DNA from: Xylanibacter ruminicola 23
GTDB taxonomy: Bacteria; Bacteroidota; Bacteroidia; Bacteroidales; Bacteroidaceae
Direction: 5' to 3'
NCBI RefSeq assembly: GCF_000025925.1
Contig: NC_014033.1
Location: 420,001 to 452,000 of the forward strand
Length of the DNA stretch: 32,000 nucleotides
Under the pieces are notes generated by a model, which saw only the letters and a program-made list of their open reading frames with translations, did not search any database and was not told the DNA's origin. Shown in pieces: positions 2,386-21,899 of the stretch. Within the stretch, counting starts at the first letter, position 1. Every line of letters starts with the position of its first letter. The translations under genes and the position numbers were made by a program.

Positions 2386-3126
2386 ATGAACATAGAAAAG
2401 AAATTACCCAGACCCAGTGTAGAGAAACTGAATGAATTTGATGAACTATGCAAGCAAACGCATGCCACCGACCTTAGCAGCGAGCAGTATCAGAGTCTGA
2501 TTGACCAGGTGAACGACATCATTGTTTCGTACGATTTGAGCAACTATGTGTTCGAAAATCCTGCCACAGGCAAGAAGGGCGTGAAAAACCCTGCGGGTGT
2601 GGTGCTTGTTCCTGCCGATTACGATGAGTTCAATTTCGTAGGCGACCACAATATTTTCACTGTGTCTCATATTGCTGCCAAGAGGGGTGGTAAGTATGGT
2701 GTTGTGACTACCGACGGCACAGGCAAGGCGCTTTGTGACTTCCGCTTTGACTATCTGCAGTGGTATCCCTACGCAGGACTTTATCTGGCACGTTGGGACG
2801 GTGTCGAAGGAAAATTTGGAATGGTCAACAAGGATGGTAAGGTGTTTATTCCTAACGTGTTGACCAAGCTCTATGATCCATGGAACGACTTCATGCTCCT
2901 TGAGAGCGATGGAAAATTTGGTGGTCTTGATATCAGTACATTCTTCTTTGTAATGCCCGAGTACGACAATATTGATGCAGAACCTGACGAACTCGTTGTT
3001 TTCCACAAAGGCGGCGTCGAAGGCTACATTGTTGAGGAGACTGGCGAATTTATTACCAAGGAACAGTATGAAGACGATGAGCAATATGTCGATGCTTACG
3101 TTTACAATACGTATGTTAACCTCTAA
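2386..3126 (+). CDS. WG-repeat (KWG-like beta-repeat) protein
   Basis: The motif G-K-[YF]-G-x-[VL]-x(2)-D-G recurs: GKYGVVTTDGTG, GKFGMVNKDGKV, GKFGGLDIS, GVEGYIVEETGE. There is an acidic C-terminal tail and no signal peptide is evident. Confidence 0.7.
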   Translation: MNIEKKLPRPSVEKLNEFDELCKQTHATDLSSEQYQSLIDQVNDIIVSYDLSNYVFENPATGKKGVKNPAGVVLVPADYDEFNFVGDHNIFTVSHIAAKRGGKYGVVTTDGTGKALCDFRFDYLQWYPYAGLYLARWDGVEGKFGMVNKDGKVFIPNVLTKLYDPWNDFMLLESDGKFGGLDISTFFFVMPEYDNIDAEPDELVVFHKGGVEGYIVEETGEFITKEQYEDDEQYVDAYVYNTYVNL

Positions 3127-3192: not shown

Positions 3193-4323
3193 TTACTGTG
3201 TTCGTAGGATATAGTCTAGACTTGTTTTCAGTTCTTTTTCAAATTCCGGTTGAATTGAATAATCAATCTGATTAACATTTACCAAATCCATGCGTAGTCC
3301 ATCACCGAATGGTGAATGGTCTAACATAATAGGAATGATATTTTTCTTGCATGTTATTGCATATTTTACTTCATTCTTAACATAAACGGATTTATTGGCT
3401 TGCTCAGAAGACATAAAGATAACCACTCTGGTGTTTTCGATGGCTTTTTCTATTACTTCTTTAAAATCATAACTACTGAATATTCCATTTTTGTCAATCC
3501 ATGTTTTAATACCCCATTTTTCAATAAGGTCTTTTACCGCAAAGGCTTTTTCAGATTCTTCACGCTTATAGCTGATAAAAACTTCGTGATCAGGGTTCTT
3601 ATAATAGGCTAGGTCTTCTTGTGACAGTTCGATAGGTTTCCTATCATACTCAACAGAATTGTTTTCTTGTTCCTTTATGAAATTGGCAATTGCAGATTTA
3701 AAAGCAAATATTTCAAAGATGTCAAATGCACTCATATCAAGTATGCTATAGATATAAACTTCCACTTCAATAGGTCGGTTTGTTTTTTGCAGTTGATTGA
3801 ATAACTCATCAGCCATTATTTCAACTACTGTTTTATACGGCATATGTGCAGAACCTGAACCAATAATGGGGAAAGCTATGGAACTAATCTGTAGGGCATG
3901 TACTAACTGGAAACATCTGTCAATACAACTTCTCACAATGTTATTAACTTTATCAGCATTTGGAACGTTTAATCCAGCCCAAGTTTCACTCAGATATTTG
4001 TCATCAATAGTAAGACAATGGAAAATGTGTTTCTGACTAAGCTCGCCAGCACATGAAACAACAACATTCCCGATTGTCGCAGGTAGTTGTTTCTGGGCAT
4101 CTTCTTGAATATTTTTGCCACCAGCGTGACTTATGGCCATTGAAACACCCCCACTCATAGTTAAAAGGGTATCATCGCTACTGACAATAACTTCAGATGT
4201 AGATTTTGTGATATCGCCAAACTTAATTGTTACAGAAGATGCATTGTATTTGTATGTACGACTTTCCTTTTCCATCTTTCTATTATCTTGATATTTTTTC
4301 CCGCAAATATACACCTTTTCCAT
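3193..4323 (-). CDS. Macro domain - TIR domain fusion protein
   Basis: The N-terminal half matches a macro fold pattern: IKFGDITKSTSEVIVSSDDTLLTMSGGVSMAISHAGG ... HIFHC ... SIAFPIIGSGSAHMP. The C-terminal half matches bacterial TIR: VFISYKREESEKAF...GIKTWIDK...VVIFMSSEQANKSVYVKNEVKYA...IIPIMLD, including the candidate catalytic Glu. The start is ambiguous among 4356, 4323 and 4275. I trimmed it to 4323 because 4331-4395 is the conserved intergenic repeat R3. Confidence 0.75.
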   Translation of the reverse strand: MEKVYICGKKYQDNRKMEKESRTYKYNASSVTIKFGDITKSTSEVIVSSDDTLLTMSGGVSMAISHAGGKNIQEDAQKQLPATIGNVVVSCAGELSQKHIFHCLTIDDKYLSETWAGLNVPNADKVNNIVRSCIDRCFQLVHALQISSIAFPIIGSGSAHMPYKTVVEIMADELFNQLQKTNRPIEVEVYIYSILDMSAFDIFEIFAFKSAIANFIKEQENNSVEYDRKPIELSQEDLAYYKNPDHEVFISYKREESEKAFAVKDLIEKWGIKTWIDKNGIFSSYDFKEVIEKAIENTRVVIFMSSEQANKSVYVKNEVKYAITCKKNIIPIMLDHSPFGDGLRMDLVNVNQIDYSIQPEFEKELKTSLDYILRTQ

Positions 4324-4330
4324 CTTTTTT

Positions 4331-4395
4331 CCAAGAAAAATCGGAAAAAGTTGCAATAATGTGTTAGATTATCCCCTTTTCGTGTACCAATATAG
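4331..4395 (+). repeat. Cassette-leader repeat R3 (diverged copy)
   Basis: CCAAGAAAAATCGGAAAAAGTTGCA...GTTAGATTATCCCCTTTTCGTGTACCAATAT. It lies in the divergent intergenic region between the Macro-TIR gene and the gene at 4421. Confidence 0.75.
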
Positions 4396-4420: not shown

Positions 4421-5383
4421 ATGCGTATGATAGTAGATACAATGACCGACCTCGAATTGCTGTATGAGGTAAGAAAAGATTATGAAGAGTTCAGCGCTTA
4501 TTGGTTTACTTTGTGTCATAACCCTGTATATAAGAAACGAATGAAGTGGGGTAGACCAAAAGATGGCAAATTTGTCATTCGAATCAACGAATGGAAGTCT
4601 GCTAGAGGAAACCTGTACAATTTTGTTATTACGATGTCAGGTTGGAATGATTTTAAGAAAGGTAAATTCGAAACGTCTACTACAACATTCTTTAAGCGTA
4701 ATAAGGCTCTGAATGCTATCAGGTTGATGTTTTATCAGAATGACGTGCCTGGTATTGAGATTTTTACCTCTCATTTTATCGATAGGTATAATCTGCGTTT
4801 CCTTCATCAGCCATACCTTTCTCGTAAAGCAGCCTTGCAGCTATATCTGGATAATAACCATAAAACTGTCATCACGAGCTTCCGCTCCCCCAAATACGAT
4901 TGTAATGTGATGGCAGCCGCTACCGAAGGTTATTCATTGGGTAAATTCGAAAATGACATCTTGTTGCATAAGACGTTTGTTTCTCGCGATATGCTCTATG
5001 GCAACCAGTTCGCTGATGCTGATCTTCTTGACGAAGTTTTTGCCGACTCTCATGATGGCCCAAAATCTAACATATTCACTCTTGTTGATGACTTCTCAGC
5101 CTTGTTAAACAAAGAAAAGACCGTCCCTACGATTGCTGAATTTGATCAATTTTTTGAGTTGGCTTCAAAGTACAAAGCCAAATTGGAGGATTTGGAGTAT
5201 GAAGGCAAGGAGTTCGACTTGGAATCACAGGAACTGCAGAATCAGTTTTTGTTGATGTGTGCAGGTATCGATTGGTCTAAGGGCCAGGCAAAAGATGAGG
5301 ATGGCAATCTGATTAATTTCCCTATGATGAAGCAATTGTCTATGATTCTGGGAGCCAATAACAACCTTTGGGGCAACCAGTAA
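4421..5383 (+). CDS. Hypothetical protein (320 aa), no recognisable motif
   Basis: Long ORF preceded by repeat R3 and divergent from the Macro-TIR gene. The start could be 4421, 4427 or 4442. Confidence 0.7.
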   Translation: MRMIVDTMTDLELLYEVRKDYEEFSAYWFTLCHNPVYKKRMKWGRPKDGKFVIRINEWKSARGNLYNFVITMSGWNDFKKGKFETSTTTFFKRNKALNAIRLMFYQNDVPGIEIFTSHFIDRYNLRFLHQPYLSRKAALQLYLDNNHKTVITSFRSPKYDCNVMAAATEGYSLGKFENDILLHKTFVSRDMLYGNQFADADLLDEVFADSHDGPKSNIFTLVDDFSALLNKEKTVPTIAEFDQFFELASKYKAKLEDLEYEGKEFDLESQELQNQFLLMCAGIDWSKGQAKDEDGNLINFPMMKQLSMILGANNNLWGNQ

Positions 5384-5461: not shown

Positions 5462-5806
5462 TCAGATTAACTCCAGAGACTCAATGGTGTCATCAATAAT
5501 CTCATAACGACTTATCCCTTCTTTGAGCTTTTCAAGGGCCCCTTCCAAGATTCCACGATGAATTCCATCTAAATCAAGCTCCTCATCTTCTTCATGCTCT
5601 TGTTCTACCACCTGATCCACAGTGAGTTTTCCATCCAGTAAGGCTTCAATGCGAGCCCACTTGATGCTATTTCTGATTCTTGCCCTTGCTACTATCGCTG
5701 CGTCATACTCCCCCGGATTCATATCAAGCGTAGCTGATGGATGCAACTTGTTGAGCTCCTGCTCAAATTTCTCACGAGTGCACAATGCTAATTCTTCTAA
5801 TTTCAT
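5462..5806 (-). CDS. Hypothetical small acidic protein (114 aa)
   Basis: ORF with an acidic central stretch (EQEHEEDEELDLD), convergent with the gene at 4421-5383. Confidence 0.55.
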   Translation of the reverse strand: MKLEELALCTREKFEQELNKLHPSATLDMNPGEYDAAIVARARIRNSIKWARIEALLDGKLTVDQVVEQEHEEDEELDLDGIHRGILEGALEKLKEGISRYEIIDDTIESLELI

Positions 5807-5888
5807 GATTCTTTTTGTTTTGGGGTTCTACTATTTCTAAAATCCATGCTTAAAGATACATTATTAAGTTATATGATTGTTGTTTTTT

Positions 5889-5922
5889 ATATCTATAACA
5901 CCAGGCAGAATGTTATAGATAT
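5889..5922. promoter_or_regulatory. 12-bp perfect inverted repeat (ATATCTATAACA / TGTTATAGATAT) in a divergent intergenic region; candidate operator
   Basis: The arms are 5889-5900 and 5911-5922, separated by a 10-nt spacer. It lies between the divergent starts at 5806 (-) and 6032 (+). Confidence 0.4.
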
Positions 5923-5965
5923 GTAAATTAAGAGTCTGGTCAGCATAATTATACCTTTAATTTTT

Positions 5966-5996
5966 TTTGATGTTTGTGAGAATTTGCCTATATTTG
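5966..5996 (+). promoter_or_regulatory. Bacteroidetes-type promoter (-33 TTTG, -7 TATATTTG)
   Basis: TTTG at 5966-5969 and TAnnTTTG (TATATTTG) at 5989-5996 are 19 nt apart, about 35 nt upstream of the ATG at 6032. Confidence 0.6.
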
Positions 5997-6031
5997 CAGC
6001 ACGATATGTAACTTAAAACCCTTTGAAAGTT

Positions 6032-6304
6032 ATGGCACGATGTCCTAAAACTGCAGCCGAGGCCTTTAAACGTTTAGACCGCAGGCTTACAAAACAAGAG
6101 AAACAGCAGATAGCTGAAGCCGAAGATGTGGTTGAGTTCCACTTTGGCCTTGGTATGTGGATTCGAAACTATTGGATCTATACTGGCGAGAGCGAGAATC
6201 TCGAGTCGCTTCTTAAAGATTTGGGCGAACCAGAGTTTCTGATTGGCGATATGGCTTCATCTGCCATTCTCGACGCATATCAGAAACATCTGAGAGGAAA
6301 GTGA
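6032..6304 (+). CDS. Small hypothetical protein (90 aa from ATG 6032) with an HFGLGMWIRN motif; possibly DUF6794-like (unverified recollection)
   Basis: The ORF track begins at TTG 6023 and the first ATG is at 6032. The gene sits directly downstream of the promoter above. Its stop codon lies just upstream of repeat B and falls within the similarity that extends about 10 nt upstream of the repeat. Confidence 0.55.
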   Translation: MARCPKTAAEAFKRLDRRLTKQEKQQIAEAEDVVEFHFGLGMWIRNYWIYTGESENLESLLKDLGEPEFLIGDMASSAILDAYQKHLRGK

Positions 6305-6306
6305 TA

Positions 6307-6344
6307 CCTTTCCTGTACATATGAATAAATGAATAGTTGAATAG
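6307..6344 (+). repeat. Copy B of the ~36-bp direct repeat (CCTTTCCTGTACATATGAATAAATGAATAGTTGAATAG)
   Basis: It aligns with copy A (237-272) and copy C (26340-26376). Similarity to A extends about 10 nt upstream (GTGATACC). Confidence 0.85.
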
Positions 6345-6394
6345 TTTTCAAGAAAAATAGCTTATTCAAGAAGAACTTAATAAAAGAGAAATGT

Positions 6395-8407
6395 ATGCCA
6401 ATATTAGAAAAAAACTGTAAATGGATATTTGGGCACCAAGACGACGTGAATGTTAAGGGACCTAATAATTCCACAATGATGTCTTTCAAGGATGATAATT
6501 TCCATTCCTTAGTAAGAGAATCCATCCAGAACTCTTTGGATGCTGTTGACGACAAAAACCAACCAGTTAATGTTTCATTTACTTTGAGACAATTTGATGG
6601 AATGGAGTATCCTTCGTTCTTTGATTTATACAAGCATATACAAGGATGTTTAGACAAGTTCCCTGTACAGGGAGAACCTCTTTACAGGCCTATGCTACGT
6701 TATTTTGCCTCATCACGATTGAATCAGAGTATTAATTATTTGAAAATTACTGATTCCAATACTAAAGGTATGGAATACGATAAAAAAAATGATAATTCTG
6801 GATTCAATAGATTTATAGCTGAAGGTGTCGCTCAAGATGCGGAAGGGGCAGGTGGAGCATTTGGATTTGGCAAGAATGCATTTTGGTCTTTATCACCAAT
6901 TAGTACGGTCTTCGTCTCTTCTCAAGCAAAGAATGGGGAGGCTTGTTTCGCTGGAATATCAAAATTGTGTACGCATGTTGTTGATGGAGAACTGTTACTT
7001 CCTTATGGAAAATATACATCAAATGGAGAAGTCGTTCTGACAAAGAAAGAAGATATTCCAGAAACCTTCACACCAAAGGCTACTGGAACGTCTGTATTTG
7101 TATTAGGAATTGATTCGGTAGATGAAGATGCTTTAATTAAGGCGGTTCTTCGAAATTTCTGGATGGCCATCTATAAAAAACAACTCACCGTAAAGGTTGA
7201 ACAGAAAGTAATAGATAGTGACCATCTGGAAGATCTTATGTGTCATTATTTTGATGAAGAAAATCCGAATCTCGATAAGAATTACGAATACAATCCCAGA
7301 GTATTCTATGAGATTGTTAGAAATGCAGAAAAAAGTGTTGATGGTTATAAAATCATCGAAGAACCTGTTCTGATGGATGGCAAGAACTGCGTGTCTAAGC
7401 TATATATTCATCTGAAGAATGATGCACAAGGTCAGGTCGTCTTCATGCGAAGTCAGATGATGACTATTTTTACAGAGCGAAGAAAGTGCAAAGGAGCTGA
7501 AGGTGTGTTCGTTTGTGATTCGGAAGATGGCAACAGGTTCTTAAGAGAACTAGAAGATTATACTCATAGTTCATGGTCAAGAAAAAACTATGGTGCAAGA
7601 AACCATACTAACCTAATCGTGGCATCTCGTGCACTTAAGGCAATTGACACTTTCATCCTAGATTCTGTTGCGAAGGAATTACAGCAGGGAGCGCAGGAGA
7701 CTGAGCAGGTGGCAGGTCTTGATAAGATTCTGACTATCCTGACTCCAAAGGGTGTTGATGACGAATCCAAGAAAGACGATATTGTTGATTTGGAGAATTA
7801 TAAGGACAAACCCAATCCCCCCAAAAAAGATAAGAAAGAAAAGCCGAAAACGATTCGTCAGCCCCGTCAGACTAAAGCAAAATTCGATCCACAAGGACGT
7901 CTGCGTTCGAATAGTGGAGGCAGAAGGAAGGTACGCCCTATAAAACCTGGTCCTGTGAAACCTGGATCACTAAAAGGTAAATCAATCGAATCTACAGATG
8001 GCAAAATGGGTATTTATGCAGTACCTATAGATGTAAGCTATCGCACTTGGAGTGAAGAAGACGGCAATGGTACTGTTTGGCATGTAGTCCGTTTGTTCTC
8101 TGATAAGGATATTGATAACGCGTTGGTTCAGCTTTATGCCGTCGACGAAGAAGGAAAGAAGATGGGTTTGAATATTATTGATGCCGGAGAGTATGATGTG
8201 CGCCCGGGTGAAGAATTCGTCGATTCTACTGATTTTGATGATTCTGAAACTGATTCCGAATCTACTACAAAGCAGGTAAACAACGCAATCTCCGGTGTTT
8301 CAATTCAAGCTAATATACCAAAAACGATTAAGGTGCGTTTTAATTCTAGTTTAAAATACTCACTAAGTATTGATACCGATAAAATAGAAGATAGCGATGA
8401 AGATTAA
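6395..8407 (+). CDS. GHKL-superfamily (Hsp90/MORC/HATPase_c_3-like) ATPase with a K/P-rich linker and an uncharacterised C-terminal domain
   Basis: N-box: RESIQNSLDA (E42, N46, D49). G1-like: ITDSNTKGM. G2-like: GAGGAFGFGKNAFW. A basic low-complexity linker (KDKPNPPKKDKKEKPKTIRQPRQTKAK...RRKVRPIKPGPVKPGSLKGK) spans about 7786-7980. The C-terminal domain ends in an acidic stretch (DSTDFDDSETDSES). Confidence 0.75.
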   Translation: MPILEKNCKWIFGHQDDVNVKGPNNSTMMSFKDDNFHSLVRESIQNSLDAVDDKNQPVNVSFTLRQFDGMEYPSFFDLYKHIQGCLDKFPVQGEPLYRPMLRYFASSRLNQSINYLKITDSNTKGMEYDKKNDNSGFNRFIAEGVAQDAEGAGGAFGFGKNAFWSLSPISTVFVSSQAKNGEACFAGISKLCTHVVDGELLLPYGKYTSNGEVVLTKKEDIPETFTPKATGTSVFVLGIDSVDEDALIKAVLRNFWMAIYKKQLTVKVEQKVIDSDHLEDLMCHYFDEENPNLDKNYEYNPRVFYEIVRNAEKSVDGYKIIEEPVLMDGKNCVSKLYIHLKNDAQGQVVFMRSQMMTIFTERRKCKGAEGVFVCDSEDGNRFLRELEDYTHSSWSRKNYGARNHTNLIVASRALKAIDTFILDSVAKELQQGAQETEQVAGLDKILTILTPKGVDDESKKDDIVDLENYKDKPNPPKKDKKEKPKTIRQPRQTKAKFDPQGRLRSNSGGRRKVRPIKPGPVKPGSLKGKSIESTDGKMGIYAVPIDVSYRTWSEEDGNGTVWHVVRLFSDKDIDNALVQLYAVDEEGKKMGLNIIDAGEYDVRPGEEFVDSTDFDDSETDSESTTKQVNNAISGVSIQANIPKTIKVRFNSSLKYSLSIDTDKIEDSDED

Positions 8408-9263
8408 TAGTTCTTTTCCCCATCCAGTATTAGGGGTTAATAAAGGTGTTATGCCAGATCTTGAGGACGATGCGTTGCAGCTTGTCTCGATAGATGAAAC
8501 TTCCGATACATATGTATATAATTTTGCATTAAAGCAAAATAATGACCAGATTACGCAGTATATAACAGAGAAGCGTGCTAAGTATGTATGCGAGGTTGAT
8601 TGTGTTAGGACTTTTTATAAGGACACGTTTTCTTATGAAACTTCTGATATCAAAGTCGAAATTAAGAAAGCAAATGTTACAGGTCATGTTGATTTCTATT
8701 TTTATATAGTAACCAAGTTTGGACTTCCTGCTTATACAAATAGGTTTAATGACGACTATCGTGATCCTGACACAGGCGCGATGCCTTCGTTTAAGTTGGA
8801 TACCGGAGCTGTTCTCGCTGCGTTTGGGAAATATAGCGACGACGTAAATACTCGTTTTAATAACAAGCCCGACCTGAAATCATTCATACAGGTAGTTAAA
8901 CGTCAAGATACTGAGAAGAATGTTGATATCACGTTGACTAACGATACCATCAACATAGAGCTACCTGTGGATATGTTTACCGACTTCGTTGCATTTAACC
9001 AGGATCAGTATAGAGGCATTTTCTACACATCTTTGATTTTTAATGCTCTTGTAAAAGGCATTTTGAATCTTGAAAAGAAAGAAGACTCTACATGGGCTGA
9101 TAGTATTAAGGCTATGGTCGAGGCGAGTCCTGATAAATACAAAGGCTTGTCATTAGATGAACCAACTGATGCTGTTGATATTGCAACTATTATGCTATCA
9201 AATATAGCATATGGGTCACCTTACGATTTGTTATTTAAGTGTATTAATGAACTCCAAGTATAA
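8397..9263 (+). CDS. Hypothetical protein (288 aa), second gene of the GHKL operon
   Basis: The ATG at 8397 overlaps the upstream stop (8405-8407) by 11 nt. I recognise no motif. Confidence 0.7.
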   Translation: MKINSSFPHPVLGVNKGVMPDLEDDALQLVSIDETSDTYVYNFALKQNNDQITQYITEKRAKYVCEVDCVRTFYKDTFSYETSDIKVEIKKANVTGHVDFYFYIVTKFGLPAYTNRFNDDYRDPDTGAMPSFKLDTGAVLAAFGKYSDDVNTRFNNKPDLKSFIQVVKRQDTEKNVDITLTNDTINIELPVDMFTDFVAFNQDQYRGIFYTSLIFNALVKGILNLEKKEDSTWADSIKAMVEASPDKYKGLSLDEPTDAVDIATIMLSNIAYGSPYDLLFKCINELQV

Positions 9264-9274
9264 CAGGAATAGAT

Positions 9275-10081
9275 ATGGAATTACAAAGAATTTTTACACC
9301 AGAATATGTCAATCAGTTGGTAAACGACATAAATCCCGATAACTATAAAGGCGATATTGCTATTTATAATGCCAATGAAGTTAGGCGCTTAAAGGGAGTA
9401 GAGAAGCCAGATGGGTTATTGGAGAAAATGCTGAATGCTGCTGATGAATATGAAGCAGCTATACATCTGTACGAGGCATATAAAAGCATCAGTCCAGTTG
9501 TTGCTGCCAGCCGCTCGTTCTGGATATATCTTACGCATGTTGATTTGTTTAAGTATGTTAAGCGCGAATGGCCCTATTTGGAGATTTACGAGGTAGATCA
9601 TAAATTCAGAAAACAGAAAAGGGGTGATAAACGTTCAGAAACAGATATGAAAAAATATATTCTCGATCATTGGATGATTTCCCCTAATGGTTTAATGAGA
9701 ACTTCATTGATGAATCTGTGGTGGTCTGTATATCTTACTGTCGATGAGTCATTGGGTGATGACCATAAATACGATCTTACGAAGGTATTCTTCAGTAATA
9801 ACGGTATGCGTACTCGAAGATTGGGAACAGGTCATCTTGGCCGCAATAAAGAAGCTCTTAAGGGTATACTTACTTTTATGAAAGACAATCCTGATGTTTT
9901 CGAAAGTGGTTTGGAGAATCGTATGATTTGGATAACTCGCCATTTTAATCTAATTGGCGGTACAAAGCCTTTGGCAAATCTACCTTACACTTTCTTTAAG
10001 CGCGAACTTGAAAAGAATCGTGATCTTTTGAAGGGTATTAGCAAACGAGAAGATGTGATGGGACCAAATGCTATTATCTAG
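9275..10081 (+). CDS. Hypothetical protein (268 aa), third gene of the GHKL operon
   Basis: It starts 11 nt after the upstream stop. The protein is W-rich and basic with no recognised motif. It is followed by a hairpin at 10084-10116. Confidence 0.7.
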   Translation: MELQRIFTPEYVNQLVNDINPDNYKGDIAIYNANEVRRLKGVEKPDGLLEKMLNAADEYEAAIHLYEAYKSISPVVAASRSFWIYLTHVDLFKYVKREWPYLEIYEVDHKFRKQKRGDKRSETDMKKYILDHWMISPNGLMRTSLMNLWWSVYLTVDESLGDDHKYDLTKVFFSNNGMRTRRLGTGHLGRNKEALKGILTFMKDNPDVFESGLENRMIWITRHFNLIGGTKPLANLPYTFFKRELEKNRDLLKGISKREDVMGPNAII

Positions 10082-10083
10082 TA

Positions 10084-10116
10084 AATAAGCGTCGGGATAT
10101 TGTCCTGACGCTTATT
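10084..10116. terminator. Bidirectional hairpin terminator (AATAAGCGTC...GACGCTTATT)
   Basis: A 10-bp perfect stem (10084-10093 and 10107-10116) carries extra inner pairs. It sits between the stop at 10081 (+) and the reconstructed pre-insertion vsr stop at 10115-10117 (-). Confidence 0.6.
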
Positions 10117-10180
10117 ACTTATTTGTCATTTCTTCGGCTGCTTTTAGCATCGGGAAATCCTCTTCATGCTGATATCGCTG

Positions 10181-10262
10181 TATCGGTACCAAGTGTAACA
10201 CTGTAATCGGTACCATGCTAGCGCTGCAATCGGTACCGTCCGTATCGCTGCAAACGGTACCA
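10181..10262. repeat. IS21 subterminal repeat array, istB-proximal end (4 copies, 23-24-bp period)
   Basis: GGTACC cores lie at 10185, 10209, 10232 and 10256 within (A/T)ATCGGTACC contexts. Confidence 0.8.
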
Positions 10263-10298
10263 TGATCATCGGCTCTGCCTAACTGGGTGCAAAGATAA

Positions 10299-11030
10299 TT
10301 ATTTTTTCTTTTTCTGACGCATAGAATCACCTTTTAATTCAATTTTATTCGCATTTGACACCAATCTGTCCATGATGGCATCGGCCAGAGTGGGATCTCC
10401 TATGTAGTCATACCATTTATTAATAGGCAGCTGAGAGACGATGATAACGGACTTCCTCTCATACCTTTCTTCTAGTATCTGCAGCATGGCCAGACGTGTG
10501 TTGGTGTCCATTGGTTGCAGTCCAAAGTCATCGAGTATAAGCAGGTCGTTCCGCTCAAGTGAAGTGATCATTTTCAGGAAGGTACCATCGAGCTTGCTGA
10601 GTGCCACCTTCTCTACGAAGCTGTTCATATTGAGGTAAGCCGTCCTGTATCCTAACATACAAGCCTGGCGCCCTAAGGCGCAGGCAATAAAAGATTTTCC
10701 ACATCCGCACTTGCCCTGTATGAGCAAGTTCTCATGGCGACGTATAAAGGAGCAGTCTGCAAATGCTGCAAGATCGTCCTTCGTAAAGTTACGGTCCGTG
10801 CCGCAGATAACGTCCTCTATCAGTGCGGTATATCTTAATCGACTAGTCTTGAGATACATCTCTGTCTTGCGGTTCCTTCTGTCCTGAGCTTCTGCCTCTG
10901 CCAGCCTGGCTATAGTTGCTTCCATTGCTGGGCGGTTCTGTACTGGCAGACTGAGGATTGACTCAAAAGCATCTGCCATGCCCTTGAGTTTGAGTTCTCT
11001 GAGTTGTATAACGGTTTCTTGTGAGTTCAT
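10299..11030 (-). CDS. istB: IS21-family helper ATPase IstB
   Basis: Walker A reads LIQGKCGCGKSF and Walker B reads LLILDDFG. It lies immediately downstream of istA. Confidence 0.9.
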   Translation of the reverse strand: MNSQETVIQLRELKLKGMADAFESILSLPVQNRPAMEATIARLAEAEAQDRRNRKTEMYLKTSRLRYTALIEDVICGTDRNFTKDDLAAFADCSFIRRHENLLIQGKCGCGKSFIACALGRQACMLGYRTAYLNMNSFVEKVALSKLDGTFLKMITSLERNDLLILDDFGLQPMDTNTRLAMLQILEERYERKSVIIVSQLPINKWYDYIGDPTLADAIMDRLVSNANKIELKGDSMRQKKKK

Positions 11031-11046
11031 AATTATAATTTTGATG

Positions 11047-12600
11047 TTAGATATTAAATGCTTCTGCTCCCCTTACGTAGTCGTTCTGGGGCATCTGTGA
11101 TACAGGTTCCTGATCGCCTGCCATGTCGAGGTTCTTCTCCAGGATATTCTTTATCATCGTATAGTTGACAGACCTATATCCAGCAAGCCTTTTGCAAGCA
11201 TTCTCAAGTCTTATACTGCCATATCTGCGATTCAGACTGAGTACGCCATGACATGAGCCATAATTCTGCTCTACATGTCTGCTACGCTTAAGAATCGCCT
11301 CCATAGCCTGTCTTGTATAAGGCCCGATTTCTTCCGACTTTTCCAGGAAGTAGGCTGCATTGCACGCCTTTGTACGCATGTATTCCAGATGCTCGGGAGG
11401 CATATCTTCATCATGGGTAAAGGGATCCTTGATGCCATAACGGTCGTGCGTACTGATACGTGTATTGCCAGCGTAGACCTCCACAGTGTCGATATCCCAT
11501 ACGACGGTAAGATGTTGTCCTACATACTGATATGGCACGCTATATTTACGGCCTGCCACTTGTACATGATAGTTACCTGACAGCTTGACCTCTTTGCGAT
11601 AACGGAAGCGGAAAGGAGTATCAGGCAGTTCTCCAAGAGATGGTTTCTCTTCTGCCTCAAAAATGTCAAAACGACTTCTGCCTGTAACTTTCGATGGTTT
11701 TGAGTTAAAATCATCCAGCAGTTCTGAAATACGGCTGTTCATGCTGTTCAGGTCACTGATAACCTCATCATGAAGAGGCGCATAGATAGCGTTGTAGATT
11801 TTCCTGACTGCACCTTCTACAGAGCCTTTATCGCGAGGTTTCCTTACGCGACACGCTTCAAGCGTTGTGTCGTAGTATGCAGCCCATTCTAGCGCAGCGT
11901 CAGTGAAAACAGGTTCGTAACGGTCGTTCTTCTTTACCCATTGCTTCATGTTGTCACTCTTGGCTCTGCGCACTGTCCCTCCAAAATAGCTGAAGGCATC
12001 AGATAAACCTCCAAAGAAATACTCCATAGAGGCGTCAGGAAGTGCCTTTGCATAAGCCATTCCACTGAAAGGAAGCGTGCAGACTAACACCACTACGCTG
12101 GTGATTTCGCCTGTCAGAGGGTCTGTTAGCCACAAGGCATCACCAGCAAAGTCAATCTGCATCTCTTCACCAGGCATATAGGTGTTATGAAAACTCAAGT
12201 TGTGGGCATACTGATAGTCACGGATAGCTTTCTTAAACTGAGTGTAACCATAGCCGTCGGGATGTTCACGCTTATAGTTCTCATGGAGATGCTGTATGGT
12301 CAGATAGCGGTTATGGGCCAGATCTGACACATAATCAGGAATCAGACCATCGAGGACAATTCTGGCATCAGATGGTGCTGATTCGGGTCTTGTTGACTTG
12401 AGGAACGACTCAAGGTCGACCTCGTTCATGCGGCCTCCATCTGCATACGACAGATGTCTTTCATCAGCCGCCTTCTTGTACTTGGCAAGTACGCCACGTC
12501 CCATGTGCAGTTGTCCACAGATTTCGCGGTGTGGGATGCTTGCCGCCAGCATTTGAAATGCTCTTTTTAACTTGCTCATTGTTACATTTTGGTTTGCCAT
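11047..12600 (-). CDS. istA: IS21-family transposase IstA (HTH + DDE)
   Basis: 517 aa. The N-terminal HTH-like region reads SIPHREICGQLHMGRGVLAKY and the central integrase-core region reads MQIDFAGD. Gene order and size are typical of IS21. Confidence 0.9.
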   Translation of the reverse strand: MANQNVTMSKLKRAFQMLAASIPHREICGQLHMGRGVLAKYKKAADERHLSYADGGRMNEVDLESFLKSTRPESAPSDARIVLDGLIPDYVSDLAHNRYLTIQHLHENYKREHPDGYGYTQFKKAIRDYQYAHNLSFHNTYMPGEEMQIDFAGDALWLTDPLTGEITSVVVLVCTLPFSGMAYAKALPDASMEYFFGGLSDAFSYFGGTVRRAKSDNMKQWVKKNDRYEPVFTDAALEWAAYYDTTLEACRVRKPRDKGSVEGAVRKIYNAIYAPLHDEVISDLNSMNSRISELLDDFNSKPSKVTGRSRFDIFEAEEKPSLGELPDTPFRFRYRKEVKLSGNYHVQVAGRKYSVPYQYVGQHLTVVWDIDTVEVYAGNTRISTHDRYGIKDPFTHDEDMPPEHLEYMRTKACNAAYFLEKSEEIGPYTRQAMEAILKRSRHVEQNYGSCHGVLSLNRRYGSIRLENACKRLAGYRSVNYTMIKNILEKNLDMAGDQEPVSQMPQNDYVRGAEAFNI

Positions 12601-12676
12601 ATCTCGCTAAAGGTTTTGTATTTCCTTCGGCAAAGATAGTAATTAAACTTCAATGGCAGAACCGAAATGAACTTTT

Positions 12677-12830
12677 GGTACCGATTCGAGCGCTACAGCG
12701 GTACCGATTGGTGCGCTACGCTGGTACCGTTTGGAGTGCTATGATGGTACCGATTCAAGCGCTGCGGTGGTACCGATACAAGCGCTGCGGTGGTACCGAT
12801 ACAAGCGCTATGATGGTACCGTTTCGCCGA
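12677..12830. repeat. IS21 subterminal repeat array, istA-proximal end (7 copies, exact 23-bp period)
   Basis: GGTACC cores lie at 12677, 12700, 12723, 12746, 12769, 12792 and 12815. Each is followed by GAT or GTT and a GCGCT-containing spacer. Confidence 0.85.
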
Positions 12831-13344
12831 TATTATCATCTTCATCTATTTTTGGGTAGGGGCGTGTAGTTATTCTATGATCCTGAAGCCAAATGTGGTT
12901 AAGTGTGAATGCAATGGATTCTATGGTCTTCTCTCGCTTCTTTGGGGATAACTCACATTCCCATACTGTGATGCAATGCCATCCCATTTTTGCCAGTTCG
13001 CGTTGTTCCTCCTTGTCTCGTTCTTTGTTCCTTCTGATTTTCGCCACCCAAAACTCTCTATTCGTGTTTGGGATCCTACAACATGCACTATCTGTTATTA
13101 ACTCATCTCTATTGGTTTGTAGCAATGCCACATGGTGCCCATGCCAGAAGCAGCCGTTTACAAAGATGCAAGTACGATACTTTCTTAGTACAAGGTCGGG
13201 ATGACCAGGCAACCGCTTATGGTTCAGCCTGTATCTGAATCCTCGTTTCCATAGCCCACGTCGCACAACCATCTCTGGCTTCGTATCCTTCGAGCGGATT
13301 GCTGCCATATTCTGATGGCGTTGTTGAAGTGAGAGGTGATCCAT
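12808..13344 (-). CDS. vsr: Very-short-patch repair endonuclease (Vsr), with its 3' end replaced by the IS21 terminus
   Basis: Motifs: RSKDTKPEMVVRRGLWKRGFRYRL, LPGHPDLVL, IFVNGCFWHGH. The last 10 codons (DDNIGETVPS*) are read from IS sequence. Joining the flanks across the TSD restores ...KIDEEDFPMLKAAEEMTNK* in frame, ending at 10115. Confidence 0.85.
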   Translation of the reverse strand: MDHLSLQQRHQNMAAIRSKDTKPEMVVRRGLWKRGFRYRLNHKRLPGHPDLVLRKYRTCIFVNGCFWHGHHVALLQTNRDELITDSACCRIPNTNREFWVAKIRRNKERDKEEQRELAKMGWHCITVWECELSPKKREKTIESIAFTLNHIWLQDHRITTRPYPKIDEDDNIGETVPS

Positions 13345-13351
13345 ACAGATT

Positions 13352-15670
13352 CTATGCTTCTATCAGTTCTTTACCCTTTTTGAAGATAGGGGTTCCATAC
13401 CATTTCTCTTCCCAACCTTCTTCCAGTGTGCCTTCTTTACGTCTTTTCTCCATTTCTTCTATTCTGGCTGCCTCAATGATCTTCCTTAAATTAATTGGCT
13501 TGAAGTTACGTGGCATCTTCTTTATATTGTATACCACATAGTTTCCATCAGGATTGTTGTAACTAATCTTTCTCATATACTCTTCGCCACGTAGGTTATG
13601 GCCGTCAATACGATAAACCTCATACGAAGAATAATCTGTTCCAATCTCATATAATAATAGGTATTTTGCTGAAACAACATCTGGATCAACTTTCTTCACC
13701 ATACCGCTACGCTGAGACTTGTTACTATTTCTGCGGATGTTATACATCATATTTTGATGAATCCAATCCTGCTGGTTCTTATCTTTACGCCAACCTCCAA
13801 TCAGGAACACTTCATTTGCAACATTCTCAAATTCTATAAATTCATTAGTGGATGAGGTGGCACTATCCAGTTCAACCTCCAACTGGTATAATTTGTTTAA
13901 TTCGTCTGTAGGATTGGTATTCAGAGTATAGTGGCGTATGATAAAGTCCTGACTCAATTCTGCTAATAGCCTATGATTGTCCTCATAGAATTTCGCATTG
14001 TCTTCTATCCCAACATACATGAATTTCTCGTCGCTGTAAGGACGGAACACCTTGCCTATACTACTACGAAAATGCTTCTCAATAGCCCTATGCATTCCGT
14101 CAAGTGTCCGCTCGTCATTCTTGCCTTCGTCAGTATCGACCTTTGGCTTTAGCTGAAGTGAAAAGAAAGCATAATCATTCTTCAAGAATGATAATACATT
14201 CTCTCTGAATTTCTCCTTTGTTCTTTCCTTAAATTCTTTTTTCAGACCTTCGTTACTTTGTGCGTAAAGTGACAAGACAAAGAGGAAATTGATGTCGTAG
14301 TGTTGCAAAAGAAGAGTGTCTCTATCAAATAGGCGATTCTCAAAATGTCTTATGCTCTTTATCTCATCCCTTGCCTGAAGCTTATCCTCATAATACTCGC
14401 GATCCTCTTCTTTCTCGCTAATACGTGCCGAGATAAAGAAATTGGGCGTTATGCTGTATCCGTCAGTATCTTCATCCCTATAAATAAGATACGTCTTACC
14501 TATATTCTTACGTCGACCTTGTGCATCTTTCTCGTCCTCAAGGAATAAAGATAAATTATGTTGTATTACATTTCTTGCATACGTATATTGCTTGTATTCA
14601 GAATATTCTGCTACAGGCGCACCAATACCGTAATATTTTGAGTCACCAATATAGTATATTTTGTTCTTGTTAATCAAACCTTGGTATGCATATATATGGT
14701 CAACTCTCTTGCCGTCTTCCTGTGCTTTCAAGTCTCCAATGTCAAGTCCCTTATCTGATAGCAACTCATCAACCATAGACTCGAACACAATATGATAGTC
14801 TGTCACAATAAGGAAATCTTTATATTGTTTGTCGCTATGAATGCTTGTCGCCCTTTCAAAGAAATTATTACAAAGATTCCATAACTGGAGATCTTTGTCT
14901 GAGAAGTACTTGTATCGTATCTGTTTTAAACGAACTTCTCCATAATAATCTATCCAGTTTTCAAACTCCACATCAGTTAACAGTTCATAGTTGTAATTCA
15001 CTGTCACCTCAAATCCGAACACTCTCTTCATGTAGTTCAAGATGGAGTAGAATATTACCAACAGTTCTTCATCAAAGTTTACTTGTCTTTTCTTGTTTAC
15101 AAGGTCAAGATATATTGGAGTACCGTCTTGTATTATAGCATTTTCACGGCTTACGGTCTTTGTCCAATTTATCTTGTTCATTCCACTATGCATGTTCTTC
15201 ACTATAAAGGTGAAGTAATCAGGATTTTCTTCTTGGAACTTCTGCAAAGAAAGCATAATGTCCAAATAGGTGTTCGACACCTTGTCGCCTTGCATGCCAA
15301 CGGCACTGATGTCCTTCATCTTTACGATACCTGAGTCGGGATTCAACCTCACAAACTCTTTTAATCCCCGATATAACCAGACAGTAAACTTGTATAGGAA
15401 CTGATAGTCGCTTGTACCATACTCTGTGTTTTCCTGCAACTTCTCTACATCCACCACATCATTAGGGTTGTACCTGCCAAATAGCAATCCATTCTCGCTG
15501 AGTACGACTTTAGGTAGGAAGAATACACAATCACCAAGTTGTGCGCTATAGTAATAGCCCACATAGTTCTTGCTTTTCGTGCCATCCCTCCACGTCAAGT
15601 CGCCCATTAGTCGTCCAAGCGAGTCAATTGCTTTGGGACTGTAGTGATAACCCTCTATCAGTAGTTTCAT
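13352..15670 (-). CDS. McrC-like / LlaJI R2-type restriction endonuclease subunit (772 aa)
   Basis: It overlaps the stop of the upstream McrB-like gene by 4 nt (ATGA). A PD-(D/E)xK-like segment reads YYIGDSKYY. It is much larger than E. coli McrC as I recall it. Confidence 0.7.
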   Translation of the reverse strand: MKLLIEGYHYSPKAIDSLGRLMGDLTWRDGTKSKNYVGYYYSAQLGDCVFFLPKVVLSENGLLFGRYNPNDVVDVEKLQENTEYGTSDYQFLYKFTVWLYRGLKEFVRLNPDSGIVKMKDISAVGMQGDKVSNTYLDIMLSLQKFQEENPDYFTFIVKNMHSGMNKINWTKTVSRENAIIQDGTPIYLDLVNKKRQVNFDEELLVIFYSILNYMKRVFGFEVTVNYNYELLTDVEFENWIDYYGEVRLKQIRYKYFSDKDLQLWNLCNNFFERATSIHSDKQYKDFLIVTDYHIVFESMVDELLSDKGLDIGDLKAQEDGKRVDHIYAYQGLINKNKIYYIGDSKYYGIGAPVAEYSEYKQYTYARNVIQHNLSLFLEDEKDAQGRRKNIGKTYLIYRDEDTDGYSITPNFFISARISEKEEDREYYEDKLQARDEIKSIRHFENRLFDRDTLLLQHYDINFLFVLSLYAQSNEGLKKEFKERTKEKFRENVLSFLKNDYAFFSLQLKPKVDTDEGKNDERTLDGMHRAIEKHFRSSIGKVFRPYSDEKFMYVGIEDNAKFYEDNHRLLAELSQDFIIRHYTLNTNPTDELNKLYQLEVELDSATSSTNEFIEFENVANEVFLIGGWRKDKNQQDWIHQNMMYNIRRNSNKSQRSGMVKKVDPDVVSAKYLLLYEIGTDYSSYEVYRIDGHNLRGEEYMRKISYNNPDGNYVVYNIKKMPRNFKPINLRKIIEAARIEEMEKRRKEGTLEEGWEEKWYGTPIFKKGKELIEA

Positions 15671-18102: not shown

Positions 18103-18108
18103 TATGCA

Positions 18109-19137
18109 TTACTTAAAATATTCATTTTTAATCTGTTTTGCAACAACCTCAACTAAAACTGGAGGAACAGCATTGCCAATCAACCTCCATTGATCAGAGA
18201 ATTTGCCTAAGAATACATAATCGTCAGGAAAAGATTGAATCCTTTGGATTTCTTGTATTCTTAGGAAACGATTTTTCCAATGAAACGGTCCCATATTATT
18301 TGAAAAACTTGCCTGAATAGTCCATGAAGGCTTTTCTGGTGATAATTTTAAAAGGAAAGACCAATATCTTGACCTCCATTTGAAAATGGGTTCAGGATAA
18401 CCACGTTCTTTTGTAAAAAAGAGATAATTGTCACCGGGAGGGACAAGTTTCAACAATTCTTTGTGTTTTGAACCTGCCTGTTTATCTTTATCTTCAGGAA
18501 GATCAAAATCAATGTTTCCAATAACATCACCGCAAGTTACCCATTTCTTGTGAGTTTCATCACCTAACTCAGAATGGGTTTCCTCTGGGAAGATGAAATC
18601 TGGCATATCTTTACGTACGCCAACACATATAAAACGTTGCCTTATTTGGGGTACGCCGTAATTTGCTGCGTTGACCACACGATATACAATCTTATAGCCA
18701 AGCCTTTGGGATTCACTTTGTACCATCTCTAAAGCCGCCTGATGTGGTTTGTAAACAAACCCTGCAACATTCTCAAAGAAGAAGAATTTTGGTTTTAATT
18801 CTTCCAAAGCTCTAAAATAATTGCTTACAGTTAAGAATCCGCTTTCATCTTCAAGACCGCGTTTCTTGTCTGTTCTATAGAATCTGGACTTCGAAAATGG
18901 AGGACATGGAGGGCCTCCAACTAATCCGTCAATATCTCCGTACTTCTTCTTAATCTCTTTAAAATCGACATCGGCTATACTTGCACATACGACCTCTGCA
19001 TCAGGATAATTCGCTTTAAAACTATCGCACGCATTCTGCCAATTGTCATTGGCAAATACAGTTTGAAATCCTGCGTGACTGAAGCCTGTGTCAATACCAC
19101 CAACGCCAGAGAATATGCTAACTATTTTGGGTTTCAT
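18109..19137 (-). CDS. DNA (cytosine-5) methyltransferase (342 aa)
   Basis: Motif I IFSGVGGIDTGF, motif IV GGPPCPPFS, motif VI FFFENVAGF, motif VIII QIRQRF, motif X GNAVPP. Confidence 0.9.
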   Translation of the reverse strand: MKPKIVSIFSGVGGIDTGFSHAGFQTVFANDNWQNACDSFKANYPDAEVVCASIADVDFKEIKKKYGDIDGLVGGPPCPPFSKSRFYRTDKKRGLEDESGFLTVSNYFRALEELKPKFFFFENVAGFVYKPHQAALEMVQSESQRLGYKIVYRVVNAANYGVPQIRQRFICVGVRKDMPDFIFPEETHSELGDETHKKWVTCGDVIGNIDFDLPEDKDKQAGSKHKELLKLVPPGDNYLFFTKERGYPEPIFKWRSRYWSFLLKLSPEKPSWTIQASFSNNMGPFHWKNRFLRIQEIQRIQSFPDDYVFLGKFSDQWRLIGNAVPPVLVEVVAKQIKNEYFK

Positions 19138-20695: not shown

Positions 20696-20910
20696 ATTTT
20701 TAGTTCTCTTGATTAATCAGCCACAAAGGTACGAAAAAAAAAAGAGAATATTGCGGGTTATGCGAGATTTTATACATAATTTAATAAAAGTTTCTCCGGT
20801 GGCTAACATCAAGTGTTCTGCAGAAACCTCTCTACATACTCCGTGGCATGATTCTTCATATTATTGCCTTCCTGTATTTTTGTGTGCTCGGTCAGACCGA
20901 TGAAAATGCA

Positions 20911-21306
20911 TTATTTCGGCAGCCATTCCTTGGGAATCTTGCATTTGCAGTCGCTAAAAGGATCTATTTCAATGGAATCACCGTACATGTCGAATACTTT
21001 ATCGAAGTCGGCTTCGCGGTAGTCTTCGATATCGTCTTCGTCGAGCTTGATATCGTTGCCATAATTATTCATGCCGTCGATGAGCAGTTCAAGGAATAAT
21101 GGGTGGAAGATGGCATCCCAAAATTTGTCATACAGTTCTGGGGTTTCATCGGATAGGAGTGGCAATAGGCTTTCGTCAGCTCTTTCTGCGTTGTTGGCTA
21201 TTACCTCCTTTATTTGGGTTGCTTCTTCGTCGGTGAAATCTGCCTCGACCTCAATGTTTTTGTCGCTGTAGGTCAGTGGTATTACTACTTGAAATTTGTA
21301 CTTCAT
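20911..21306 (-). CDS. Hypothetical, strongly acidic protein (131 aa)
   Basis: By my count roughly a quarter of residues are D or E, against about 13 K or R. It is preceded by a -7 box TATCTTTG (plus-strand 21343-21350). Confidence 0.55.
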   Translation of the reverse strand: MKYKFQVVIPLTYSDKNIEVEADFTDEEATQIKEVIANNAERADESLLPLLSDETPELYDKFWDAIFHPLFLELLIDGMNNYGNDIKLDEDDIEDYREADFDKVFDMYGDSIEIDPFSDCKCKIPKEWLPK

Positions 21307-21394
21307 TATAGTAAGATATTTATGTTACTAGTAATCTGCCCACAAAGATAGGGAAATATTTCAAAATAACGAAACAATCCCTTGAAATTTTGAT

Positions 21395-21435
21395 AAAAAA
21401 AACAGGCTGATATCCGGGTTAGGGATATCAGCCTG
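21395..21435 (-). terminator. Rho-independent terminator of the gene at 21442-21855
   Basis: A 13-bp perfect stem CAGGCTGATATCC/GGATATCAGCCTG (21403-21415 and 21423-21435) is followed on the minus strand by T8 (21395-21402). It coincides with the compositional boundary. Confidence 0.8.
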
Positions 21436-21441
21436 ATTGAG

Positions 21442-21882: not shown

Positions 21883-21899
21883 GCAAAGCGAGCGAAACA

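Follow-up and report, generated by a model that had tools for sequence, protein, structure and literature searches.

A divergent GHKL ATPase operon of Xylanibacter ruminicola 23 is an instance of the catalogued candidate PDC-M33 and probably works with DNA-methyltransferase restriction systems

GHKL/MORC-type ATPases have been predicted in restriction systems since 2008, and hardly any of them has been studied. In this work, we describe a three-gene operon (g1, g2 and g3; together the triad), whose first gene is predicted to encode a divergent member of this ATPase class, at positions 6395-10081 of a 32,000-nucleotide (nt) stretch of the Xylanibacter ruminicola 23 genome (NC_014033.1, positions 420,001 to 452,000; hereafter the window). 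The operon is an instance of the computationally catalogued phage defence candidate PDC-M33, and it probably works with DNA-methyltransferase restriction systems, since related triads adjoin such systems far above chance. It comprises the following features:

6395-8407, + strand: g1, 670 amino acids (aa)
8397-9263, + strand: g2, 288 aa, matching PDC-M33B and overlapping g1 by 11 nt
9275-10081, + strand: g3, 268 aa, matching Pfam DUF6339 and PDC-M33C, after an 11-nt gap behind g2
10084-10116: hairpin with a stem of 15 bp, lying between g3 and what was originally the 3' end of the convergent vsr gene

An initial annotation, made from the sequence alone, had described three co-oriented, coupled open reading frames (ORFs) with a hairpin at their end, and the coordinates, the overlap and the gap that it gave are all exact. 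The hairpin (dG -23.2 kcal/mol; z = -7.15 against shuffled sequences) is probably a bidirectional terminator serving both g3 and vsr. The window proteins are identical to entries of Xylanibacter (Prevotella) ruminicola 23 (ADE83064.1/WP_013065050.1, PRU_0354), and the database annotation of the triad proteins in this strain reads hypothetical or 'DUF6339 family protein'.

The operon had been put forward as an undescribed defence system. It is not undescribed, because the PADLOC-DB v2 models PDC-M33A, PDC-M33B and PDC-M33C match its three proteins and the cassette has been listed. PDC-M33A matches g1 at 1e-77 (aa 8-659 on model positions 3-621 of 627), PDC-M33B matches g2 at 1.1e-34 and PDC-M33C matches g3 at 1.3e-17, models A and B being covered over their full length, and no competing PADLOC-DB v2 family (Mza, MADS, Hma or other named GHKL or methylase systems) was found on g1-g3. 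PDC-M33 is one of 145 computational phage defence candidates (PDCs), which were identified on the principle of 'guilt by embedding', the host systems being BREX, DISARM and type I (Payne et al., bioRxiv 10.1101/2024.01.29.577857). Supplementary file 8 of that study lists the cassette CAS_00129 as FAM_02818>>FAM_02838>>FAM_01881, with 98 RefSeq occurrences and the entry 'Assign as candidate PDC-M33'; the gene order and orientation in the window (A>>B>>C, adjacent, co-oriented) fit this cassette. The operon is therefore an instance of a catalogued candidate, and not new as a cassette. The related claim that no named system has this gene content stands for experimentally characterised systems, and fails for the catalogue; likewise, profile searches do place all three proteins in a named system, the name being that of a candidate only. 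Genes 2 and 3 had been regarded as unplaceable. For g2, no match was found in Pfam, NCBIfam, PHROGs or the Protein Data Bank (PDB) sequences (single sequence and family profile); for g3 the statement is incorrect, as it matches Pfam DUF6339 at 1e-37. A literature search found no mention or characterisation of PDC-M33, DUF6339 or PRU_0353-0355. The PDC-M33 entry carried no domain annotation, mechanism or phenotype, and what is new here is the assignment of a GHKL fold, the link to methylases and the coupling to sulfur-binding and HNH domains. The entry thus gains testable content, namely a putative divergent GHKL clamp, a probable obligate adaptor, and a DUF6339 subunit that tracks the methyltransferase and takes phosphorothioate-reader fusions.

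Relatives of g1 were found in 284 of 185,579 species (one genome per GTDB species), almost all of them Bacteroidota, and the distribution of the triad is patchy (0.15% of species). We examined 82 loci, of which 80 come from genomes, one is derived from a metagenome (L001) and one is that of the window, and in which g1-g3 were located with hidden Markov models (HMMs) of our own. The three-gene unit is conserved far beyond chance: the co-occurrence in fixed order that the initial annotation had raised was seen, on one strand and with overlapping or abutting genes, at 79 of the 82 loci, and the remaining three are cut by contig ends.

The product of g1 can be divided into three parts:

6395-7732, + strand: N-terminal module (aa 1-446) with a GHKL (Bergerat) ATPase domain, a transducer/S5-like domain and a long C-terminal helix
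7733-7999, + strand: Lys/Pro-rich basic linker (aa ~447-535), predicted disordered
8000-8407, + strand: all-beta domain at the C-terminus (aa 536-665), including an acidic insertion and tail; this part of g1 is the variable one

Judged from its conserved motifs and predicted fold, g1 is a GHKL ATPase of a very divergent lineage. The assignment is made because motif conservation agrees with the AlphaFold/Foldseek fold, despite silent sequence models: neither HATPase_c nor HATPase_c_3 of Pfam was matched even at E<=1, NCBIfam and PHROGs gave no match, and no GHKL chain was recovered from PDB sequences by single-sequence phmmer or by family profile. The GHKL motifs named in the initial annotation are present, with motif I as RESIQNSLDA (E42/N46/D49), motif II as DSNTKGM (D120/N122/G125/M126), in which the first G of DxGxG is replaced by N, followed by GGAFGFGK (G153-K160) and G231-T232, and motifs I-IV (ExxxNxxD, DxGxG, GxxGxG, GT) are at least 90% conserved over 88 homologues. 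The AlphaFold model, with a mean confidence (pLDDT) of 75 overall and mostly >85 for aa 1-440, finds its best Foldseek match in the B subunit of topoisomerase VI (topo VI-B; 9o0g_B, E 1.5e-8), with Hsp90/GRP94, MORC3/4, GyrB/ParE and MLH1 following down to E 1e-4; altogether, 63 matches at E<=1e-3 support a Bergerat fold with a transducer domain. The Lys/Pro-rich linker, the extra C-terminal domain and the acidic tail, all noted beforehand, are likewise seen in the sequence and the model. Over residues 438-532 the pLDDT falls below 50, and among homologues the length and composition of the linker are maintained while its sequence varies. The C-terminal domain consists of strands only in the AF2 secondary structure and has no position that is at least 90% conserved among the 88 homologues, and its acidic insertion is confined to the clade of the window. 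A 'GIY...YR' string in this domain was considered as a GIY-YIG nuclease and ruled out, as the domain is all-beta and no position there is conserved.

The second protein is probably an adaptor, as far as its predicted structure can tell. Its AF2 model (pLDDT 81) has two beta-sandwich domains followed by a C-terminal helical bundle, and its N-terminal peptide SFPHPVLG is invariant, yet predicted to be disordered. The fold search gave nothing significant (best 6e-3 against the PDB, with FnIII receptors, and 2e-3 against BFVD), and g2 is left without a fold assignment because the Foldseek matches are weak (E >= 2e-3) and FnIII-like. The possibility that g2 or g3 is an analogue of the A subunit of topoisomerase VI (topo VI-A) was rejected on the predicted fold of g2 and the residue conservation of g3. 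The initial annotation had suggested a sensor with two effector or adaptor subunits, which is possible; g2 resembles an adaptor, and an effector signature was seen in neither g2 nor g3.

The third protein belongs to DUF6339, a family with 1523 representatives at 50% clustering, and had no match among PDB sequences, either as a single sequence or as a family profile. Its conserved residues are chiefly aromatic, with D157 as the sole conserved acidic residue. The string 'LIGGTKPL' was considered as a helix-hairpin-helix glycosylase motif and rejected at an hhalign probability of 0.2% against E. coli EndoIII, a weak test against a single template. In several lineages, g3 carries C-terminal extensions, and in L052, P0325 and P0367 the extension corresponds to the domain found at the N-terminus of neighbouring 'x4' proteins. 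A profile of this domain matches PDB 8H0L ('SBDHga1') at 1.1e-29, and 8H0L is the phosphorothioate-DNA sulfur-binding domain (SBD) found in enzymes of type IV (PMC10602919); the SBD cavity residues H25-K26 and P76..H79 are retained as APHK and P-x-x-H. Elsewhere, the same SBD is encoded by a gene of its own, in translational coupling with g3, or by an SBD-HNH gene, and in another form it is replaced by a different N-terminal domain fused to HNH_2. The corresponding loci, with the SBD fused to g3, alone after g3, or fused to HNH_2, are:

L052:12802-14466
L065:8006-8494
L040:14347-15312 (- strand)
L053:13538-14113

At L052, L065, L053, L068, L054 and L062, the SBD and a cytosine-C5 methyltransferase (C5 methylase) occur together at one cassette. 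In the window, g1-g3 contain neither an SBD nor an SRA domain in Pfam and PADLOC searches, the SBD being found in a subset of related loci only.

Further variation was seen in the DUF6339 family. Another C-terminal extension of g3 (137 aa), present at L031:6535-7683, L068:5019-6617 and L072:8644-9480, is homologous to the domain at the C-terminus of the 532-aa REase_II/PDC-S57-like protein that heads an operon of two C5 methylases and LlaJI genes in L068, and is a second shared module. The extensions of 32 long DUF6339 proteins contained no Pfam domain, and the N-terminal 328 aa of DUF6339 proteins of 576-581 aa were rejected as part of a g2-g3 fusion, since the g2 HMM gave no match. Many DUF6339 proteins of 430-490 aa resemble degenerate tandem duplications, and two g3 (DUF6339) genes stand in tandem at L054:12887-14434; these internal duplications and paired genes hint that g3 may act as a (pseudo)dimer.

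The commonest neighbour of the triad is a C5 methylase, which was found within five genes at 40 loci (Pfam DNA_methylase). In 21 of the 46 loci with at least 3 kb of flank on both sides, it is no more than 1.2 kb away (32 of 82 overall), and methylase density, at 0.22 per kb in the first 1 kb around the cassette, is about nine times the 0.025 per kb measured at 2-10 kb. At 22 loci, the methylase is present without McrBC/LlaJI-like genes, in divergent, upstream tandem, downstream tandem or convergent arrangement, and at least ten loci hold nothing but the methylase (with or without Vsr) and the triad. The layouts include a methylase-Vsr pair divergent from h77-g1-g2-g3 (h77 is described below), Vsr-methylase-h77-triad, triad-methylase, and the triad beside a methylase together with McrBC-/LlaJI-like genes. 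Vsr occurs within 1.2 kb at 12 of the 82 loci, every time together with the methylase. Besides methyltransferases, Vsr, McrBC-like, HNH and SBD genes are enriched at the edges of the cassette. Among the genes that repeatedly lie nearby are Vsr, HNH_2, Mrr, YhcG, Schlafen, type I, MutH/Sau3AI-like, MADS-like and Mokosh-like genes, so that the setting in defence loci suggested by the initial annotation recurs in many genomes; matches to mad2 and mad5 fell in neighbouring genes of other loci only. At L001 (Hallella absiana), a PADLOC MkoC (Mokosh) match at 7e-207 (L001:4418-7462, - strand) lies upstream of a cluster of a helix-turn-helix (HTH) gene, the triad, a methylase and McrBC-like genes, the defence genes being densely stacked. 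At L042 and L043, a canonical MORC/paraMORC-like GHKL gene (ELIxNAxDA, DNGxGM; L042:1778-3406 and L043:6094-8196, both - strand) is translationally coupled to the Vsr-methylase operon that is divergent from the triad; since this gene joins Vsr and the methylase beside the triad, the methylase is flanked there by two distinct GHKL systems.

In addition to being adjacent, the methylase is co-inherited with the triad; in a Flavobacteriia clade, the methylases are 67-93% identical and the g1 proteins 64-84%. Covariation was analysed over the 30 loci at which a complete methylase is found no more than 1.2 kb away. Identities among g3 proteins followed those among methylases when g1 was held constant (partial Mantel r = 0.52, p = 5e-4), and those of g2 did not (r = -0.06, p = 0.85). 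The g3-methylase signal was also present among loci whose methylase is located upstream of g1, so that the rest of the cassette separates it from g3 (r = 0.43, p = 0.002). Mosaic loci point the same way: in L009, g1 and g2 resemble those of L007 and g3 and the methylase resemble those of L001; in L039/L057, g3 and the methylase are 81% and 92% alike, with just 64-66% for g1/g2; and a module swap is also visible in L054/L062. These sequence comparisons suggest that g3 may be the component matched to the methylase. At 23 of the 82 loci, mostly methylase-bearing ones, a highly conserved helical protein of ~77 aa (h77; KRxRFEKVAxxRVQKIID...NCSNRNNYEY) is encoded 0-12 nt 5' of g1, as in:

L034:9760-9990
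L077:9736-9966

It matched nothing in any family library and is not present in the window. A role as a fourth subunit or as a regulator is possible; the idea of a classical HTH controller was rejected in view of the lacking family match, the lack of an evident HTH and its absence from the window.

The surroundings of the triad in the window are as follows:

454-2214: GmrSD gene (Pfam/PADLOC)
3193-4356, - strand: Macro-TIR gene (Pfam/PADLOC)
2386-3126, 4421-5383 and 5462-5806 (the last on the - strand): three ORFs (246, 320 and 114 aa) between the GmrSD, Macro-TIR and triad genes
~10168-12834, - strand: IS21 insertion, with istB at 10299-11030 and istA at 11047-12600 (Pfam IstB_IS21, rve, Mu-transpos_C_2)
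12808-13344, - strand: vsr, its C-terminus altered by IS21
12808-20321, - strand: LlaJI-type operon including vsr, convergent with the triad
13352-15670, - strand: LlaJI-R2-like protein (weak RE_LlaJI match at 2e-4, under the Pfam cut-off)
15667-18102, - strand: McrB-like AAA_5/MTaX1 protein, with N-terminal MTaX1 (methylase-associated X1) and AAA_5
18109-19137 and 19137-20321, - strand: the two C5 methylases of the LlaJI-type operon

The GmrSD, Macro-TIR and LlaJI-type context reported initially is matched by Pfam and PADLOC, and the three ORFs at 2386-3126, 4421-5383 and 5462-5806 have no Pfam or PADLOC match. The boundaries of IS21 were taken from the alignment to L084, in which homology begins at 5993. 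The insertion replaced the last ~12 codons of vsr (FPMLKAAEEMTNK by NIGETVPS) and is bordered by a near-perfect 11-bp repeat (ATCCTCTTCAT / ATCATCTTCAT), and by comparison with L084 the original 3' end of vsr maps to about 10115-10167. It had been deduced that, before IS21 arrived, the triad was convergent with vsr and shared its hairpin. This arrangement is confirmed by a 99%-identical metagenomic relative (L084/L085), in which g3, the hairpin and vsr are present and IS21 is absent. The element, which now parts the triad from vsr and the LlaJI-type operon, belongs to the context and lies outside the system. The same convergent LlaJI-type layout without the insertion is found in an 83% relative (L090/L091) and also in L056. 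The only methylases in the window are those of the convergent operon, ~8 kb off, and it is possible that this operon is the functional partner of the triad. In other members of the window's clade, triads abut a Bpu10I-type system that includes a C5 methylase, a type III-like pair of ResIII and an N6/N4 methylase, or an SNF2 helicase with an Eco57I/MmeI-type methylase.

Several known systems invite comparison. MORC and paraMORC1-5 GHKL ATPases were predicted in restriction-modification (R-M) operons that also contain genes for cytosine methylases and for Vsr (Iyer, Abhiman & Aravind 2008, PMC2292703). Compared by family models, described architecture and partners, g1 shares with them a GHKL domain and an S5/transducer-like module, and the triad, like them, lies beside cytosine methylases, Vsr and HNH or restriction endonuclease (RE)-fold nucleases in a patchy, laterally mobile distribution. 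In contrast to them, g1 lacks a HATPase_c_3/HATPase_c match, a superfamily II (SFII) helicase partner and a fused RE-fold, TIR or HxH C-terminal domain, and the obligate g2 and g3 are not in the description of Iyer et al. 2008 (PMC2292703). As in MutL, which in E. coli stimulates Vsr (cited in Iyer et al. 2008, PMC2292703), the ATPase could be an ATP-dependent matchmaker that licenses a latent nickase. MutH and Vsr are the client nucleases of MutL in methyl-directed mismatch and very-short-patch repair, and genes for Vsr, MutH/Sau3AI-like and HNH proteins are repeatedly found next to the triad; unlike MutL, g1 has no C-terminal dimerisation/endonuclease domain and, read from its sequence, no DQHA(X)2E(X)4E, and the triad has no MutS-like partner and a defence-island rather than housekeeping distribution. 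The GHKL-Shedu protein VcSduA of Vibrio cholerae is a validated anti-phage system with a GHKL ATPase and a clamp-like middle domain (PMC12137116). It shares the GHKL ATPase with g1 and is one protein with a C-terminal PD-(D/E)xK DUF4263 nuclease, whereas g1, unlike VcSduA and paraMORC3-type fusions, ends in an all-beta domain without conserved catalytic residues and needs two partner genes. In both g1 and topo VI-B, a GHKL domain is combined with a transducer and with a long helix at the C-terminal end; unlike a type IIB topoisomerase, the triad lacks an A subunit, g2 being a predicted beta-sandwich protein and g3 showing, by residue conservation, neither the Toprim E/DxD nor an obvious 5Y-CAP catalytic set of topo VI-A. 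Finally, some PDC-M33 loci resemble ScoMcrA/SprMcrA/Hga-type enzymes (PMC10602919, PMC6224610) in having an SBD fused to or following g3, sometimes as SBD-HNH, but in ScoMcrA-type enzymes the SBD is fused straight to a nuclease without a GHKL ATPase, and the triad of the window has no SBD.

We propose that PDC-M33 is an ATP-gated DNA clamp or matchmaker complex which adds a restriction-like layer tied to DNA-modification modules, a tentative reading to which we give a probability of roughly 45%. In such a complex, g1 would be a dimerising, ATP-gated GHKL clamp of MutL/MORC/topo VI-B type, the basic disordered linker of which would engage DNA. The g2 protein would be a non-enzymatic adaptor bridging g1 and g3, with its conserved N-terminal peptide docking on a partner, and g3 would provide the interface to DNA-modification status, via either the matched neighbouring methyltransferase or an appended reader domain. 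The complex could act as an add-on layer for which methylation by the neighbour is the self mark or, alternatively, could license a co-encoded latent nuclease, as MutL does MutH and Vsr. DNA clamping, the roles of g2 and g3, the defence activity and the identity of the effector are the steps that we infer. If PDC-M33 is a methylation-aware add-on of this kind, it would explain a recurrent feature of defence islands in Bacteroidota, gut and rumen organisms with few characterised defences, give a function to DUF6339 (about 1500 representative proteins), and offer a bacterial model for the coupling of MORC-like ATPases to DNA modification.

A number of observations weigh against this proposal. 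The identity of the effector, be it a licensed co-resident nuclease, a non-nucleolytic action or a hidden activity of g3, is its weakest point, because the triad carries no nuclease signature: Pfam, NCBIfam, PADLOC and PDB searches found no nuclease family in g1-g3, the modelled fold of g2 is not that of a nuclease, and homologue conservation revealed no nuclease or effector signature or catalytic constellation. A C5 methylase is missing from the nearest 3 kb at about half of the loci, and where one is adjacent, it often has restriction enzymes of its own (LlaJI, McrBC-like, Bpu10I, Sau3AI/MutH-like, paraMORC). Where the methylase lies upstream, g1 tracks it as well, and the g3-methylase covariation could stem partly from physical linkage and block recombination. 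Within the window's clade, the partner methylases are of unrelated types. A specific match of the window's g3 to the LlaJI-type methylases was considered and rejected, as it shows no closer relationship to g3 from other LlaJI-linked loci; the methylase link is thus circumstantial for the window, where the convergent operon is parted by IS21 and g3 has no special similarity to that of LlaJI loci. The literature also holds no experimental record of PDC-M33 that we could find.

Some of these points fit a stand-alone system, or a guard or backup of R-M systems, which is merely co-localised with them, senses infection or the inhibition of restriction, and hides its effector in g2, g3 or the C-terminal domain of g1, with no methylation self mark; we regard this as somewhat unlikely. 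A comparison is offered by PrrC, a protein embedded in type I systems, and PDCs were found through embedding in BREX, DISARM and type I systems. The half of the loci without a nearby C5 methylase, the four unrelated restriction types beside triads of the window's clade and the typical island company of Mrr, Schlafen, type I, MADS-like, Mokosh-like, GmrSD and Macro-TIR genes would all be expected, and a guard that binds the methylase would account for the g3-methylase covariation as well. It is harder to square with the nine-fold rise of methylase density within 1 kb, with the at least ten loci that hold only the triad and a methylase, with or without Vsr, with a g3 fusion partner that reads DNA modification and is not a protein sensor, and with the lack of any detectable toxin-like or effector domain in g1-g3. 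Were the triad just another island-resident system, it would be an ordinary, previously catalogued candidate.

It is improbable that PDC-M33 is a type IV-like, modification-dependent system, in which foreign phosphorothioate, 5-methylcytosine or a similar mark is read by g3, the C-terminal beta domain of g1 or the SBD modules. In its favour, g3 can be fused to an SBD or coupled to an SBD or SBD-HNH gene, the sulfur-cavity residues being retained, and modification-dependent neighbours (Mrr, McrBC/LlaJI-like, GmrSD) are frequent; 'solo' cassettes would be natural for such enzymes, and the aromatic conservation of g3 might recall methyl-reader cages. However, the g3 of the window has no SBD, and a co-inherited, active-looking C5 methylase would modify self DNA, which is hard to reconcile unless the specificities differ; the SBD and the C5 methylase even share a cassette at the loci listed above. 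We consider equally doubtful the notion that the triad is a nuclease-free, MORC-like immune machine, in which g3 would represent a new class of reader for the neighbour's methylation or, through SBD add-ons, for phosphorothioate, and a g1 dimer would clamp unmarked DNA and compact or block it, or hand it over to a co-resident nuclease. If it were true, the triad would be a prokaryotic counterpart of the coupling between MORC and DNA methylation in eukaryotic silencing, and a general 'booster' plugging into unrelated R-M types. A role as a repair or maintenance accessory of C5-methylase/Vsr modules, in which a MutL-like matchmaker aids very-short-patch T:G repair or stabilises R-M and is not antiviral, is very unlikely, for although Vsr invariably comes with the methylase where it lies within 1.2 kb (12 of 82 loci), E. 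coli MutL stimulates Vsr and a repair factor specific for sequence context would be expected to yield the g3-methylase covariation, the triad is missing from most Dcm-Vsr pairs in nature, half of the triads have no methylase and 70 of 82 no Vsr nearby, the distribution is patchy at 0.15% of species, and the cassette is set among defence genes and mobile elements.

Upstream of the operon, two further features were noted:

5989-5996, + strand: promoter motif TAnnTTTG (TATATTTG), a Bacteroidetes-type -7 element, with TTTG at 5966 and 5973
6023-6304, + strand: small ORF of 93 aa (Pfam DUF6794 at 9e-17), ending 90 nt 5' of g1

A regular-expression scan found the motif at 5989-5996 as the sole occurrence of TAnnTTTG within 5800-6400, and by this motif match alone it is a possible candidate promoter for the DUF6794 gene and the triad. 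The position of the DUF6794 gene 5' of g1 is restricted to 99% relatives, and the gene is missing from most loci. It is placed 3' of the triad in the 73% relatives L093-L095, and since it is found again there, it is perhaps a loosely linked accessory; it may possibly be regarded as a leader gene candidate outside the conserved core. At the other end of the island, the G+C content climbs from about 0.37-0.40 to 0.49-0.59 beyond ~21 kb (~20900-21900), a step that probably marks the right-hand border of a low-GC defence island.

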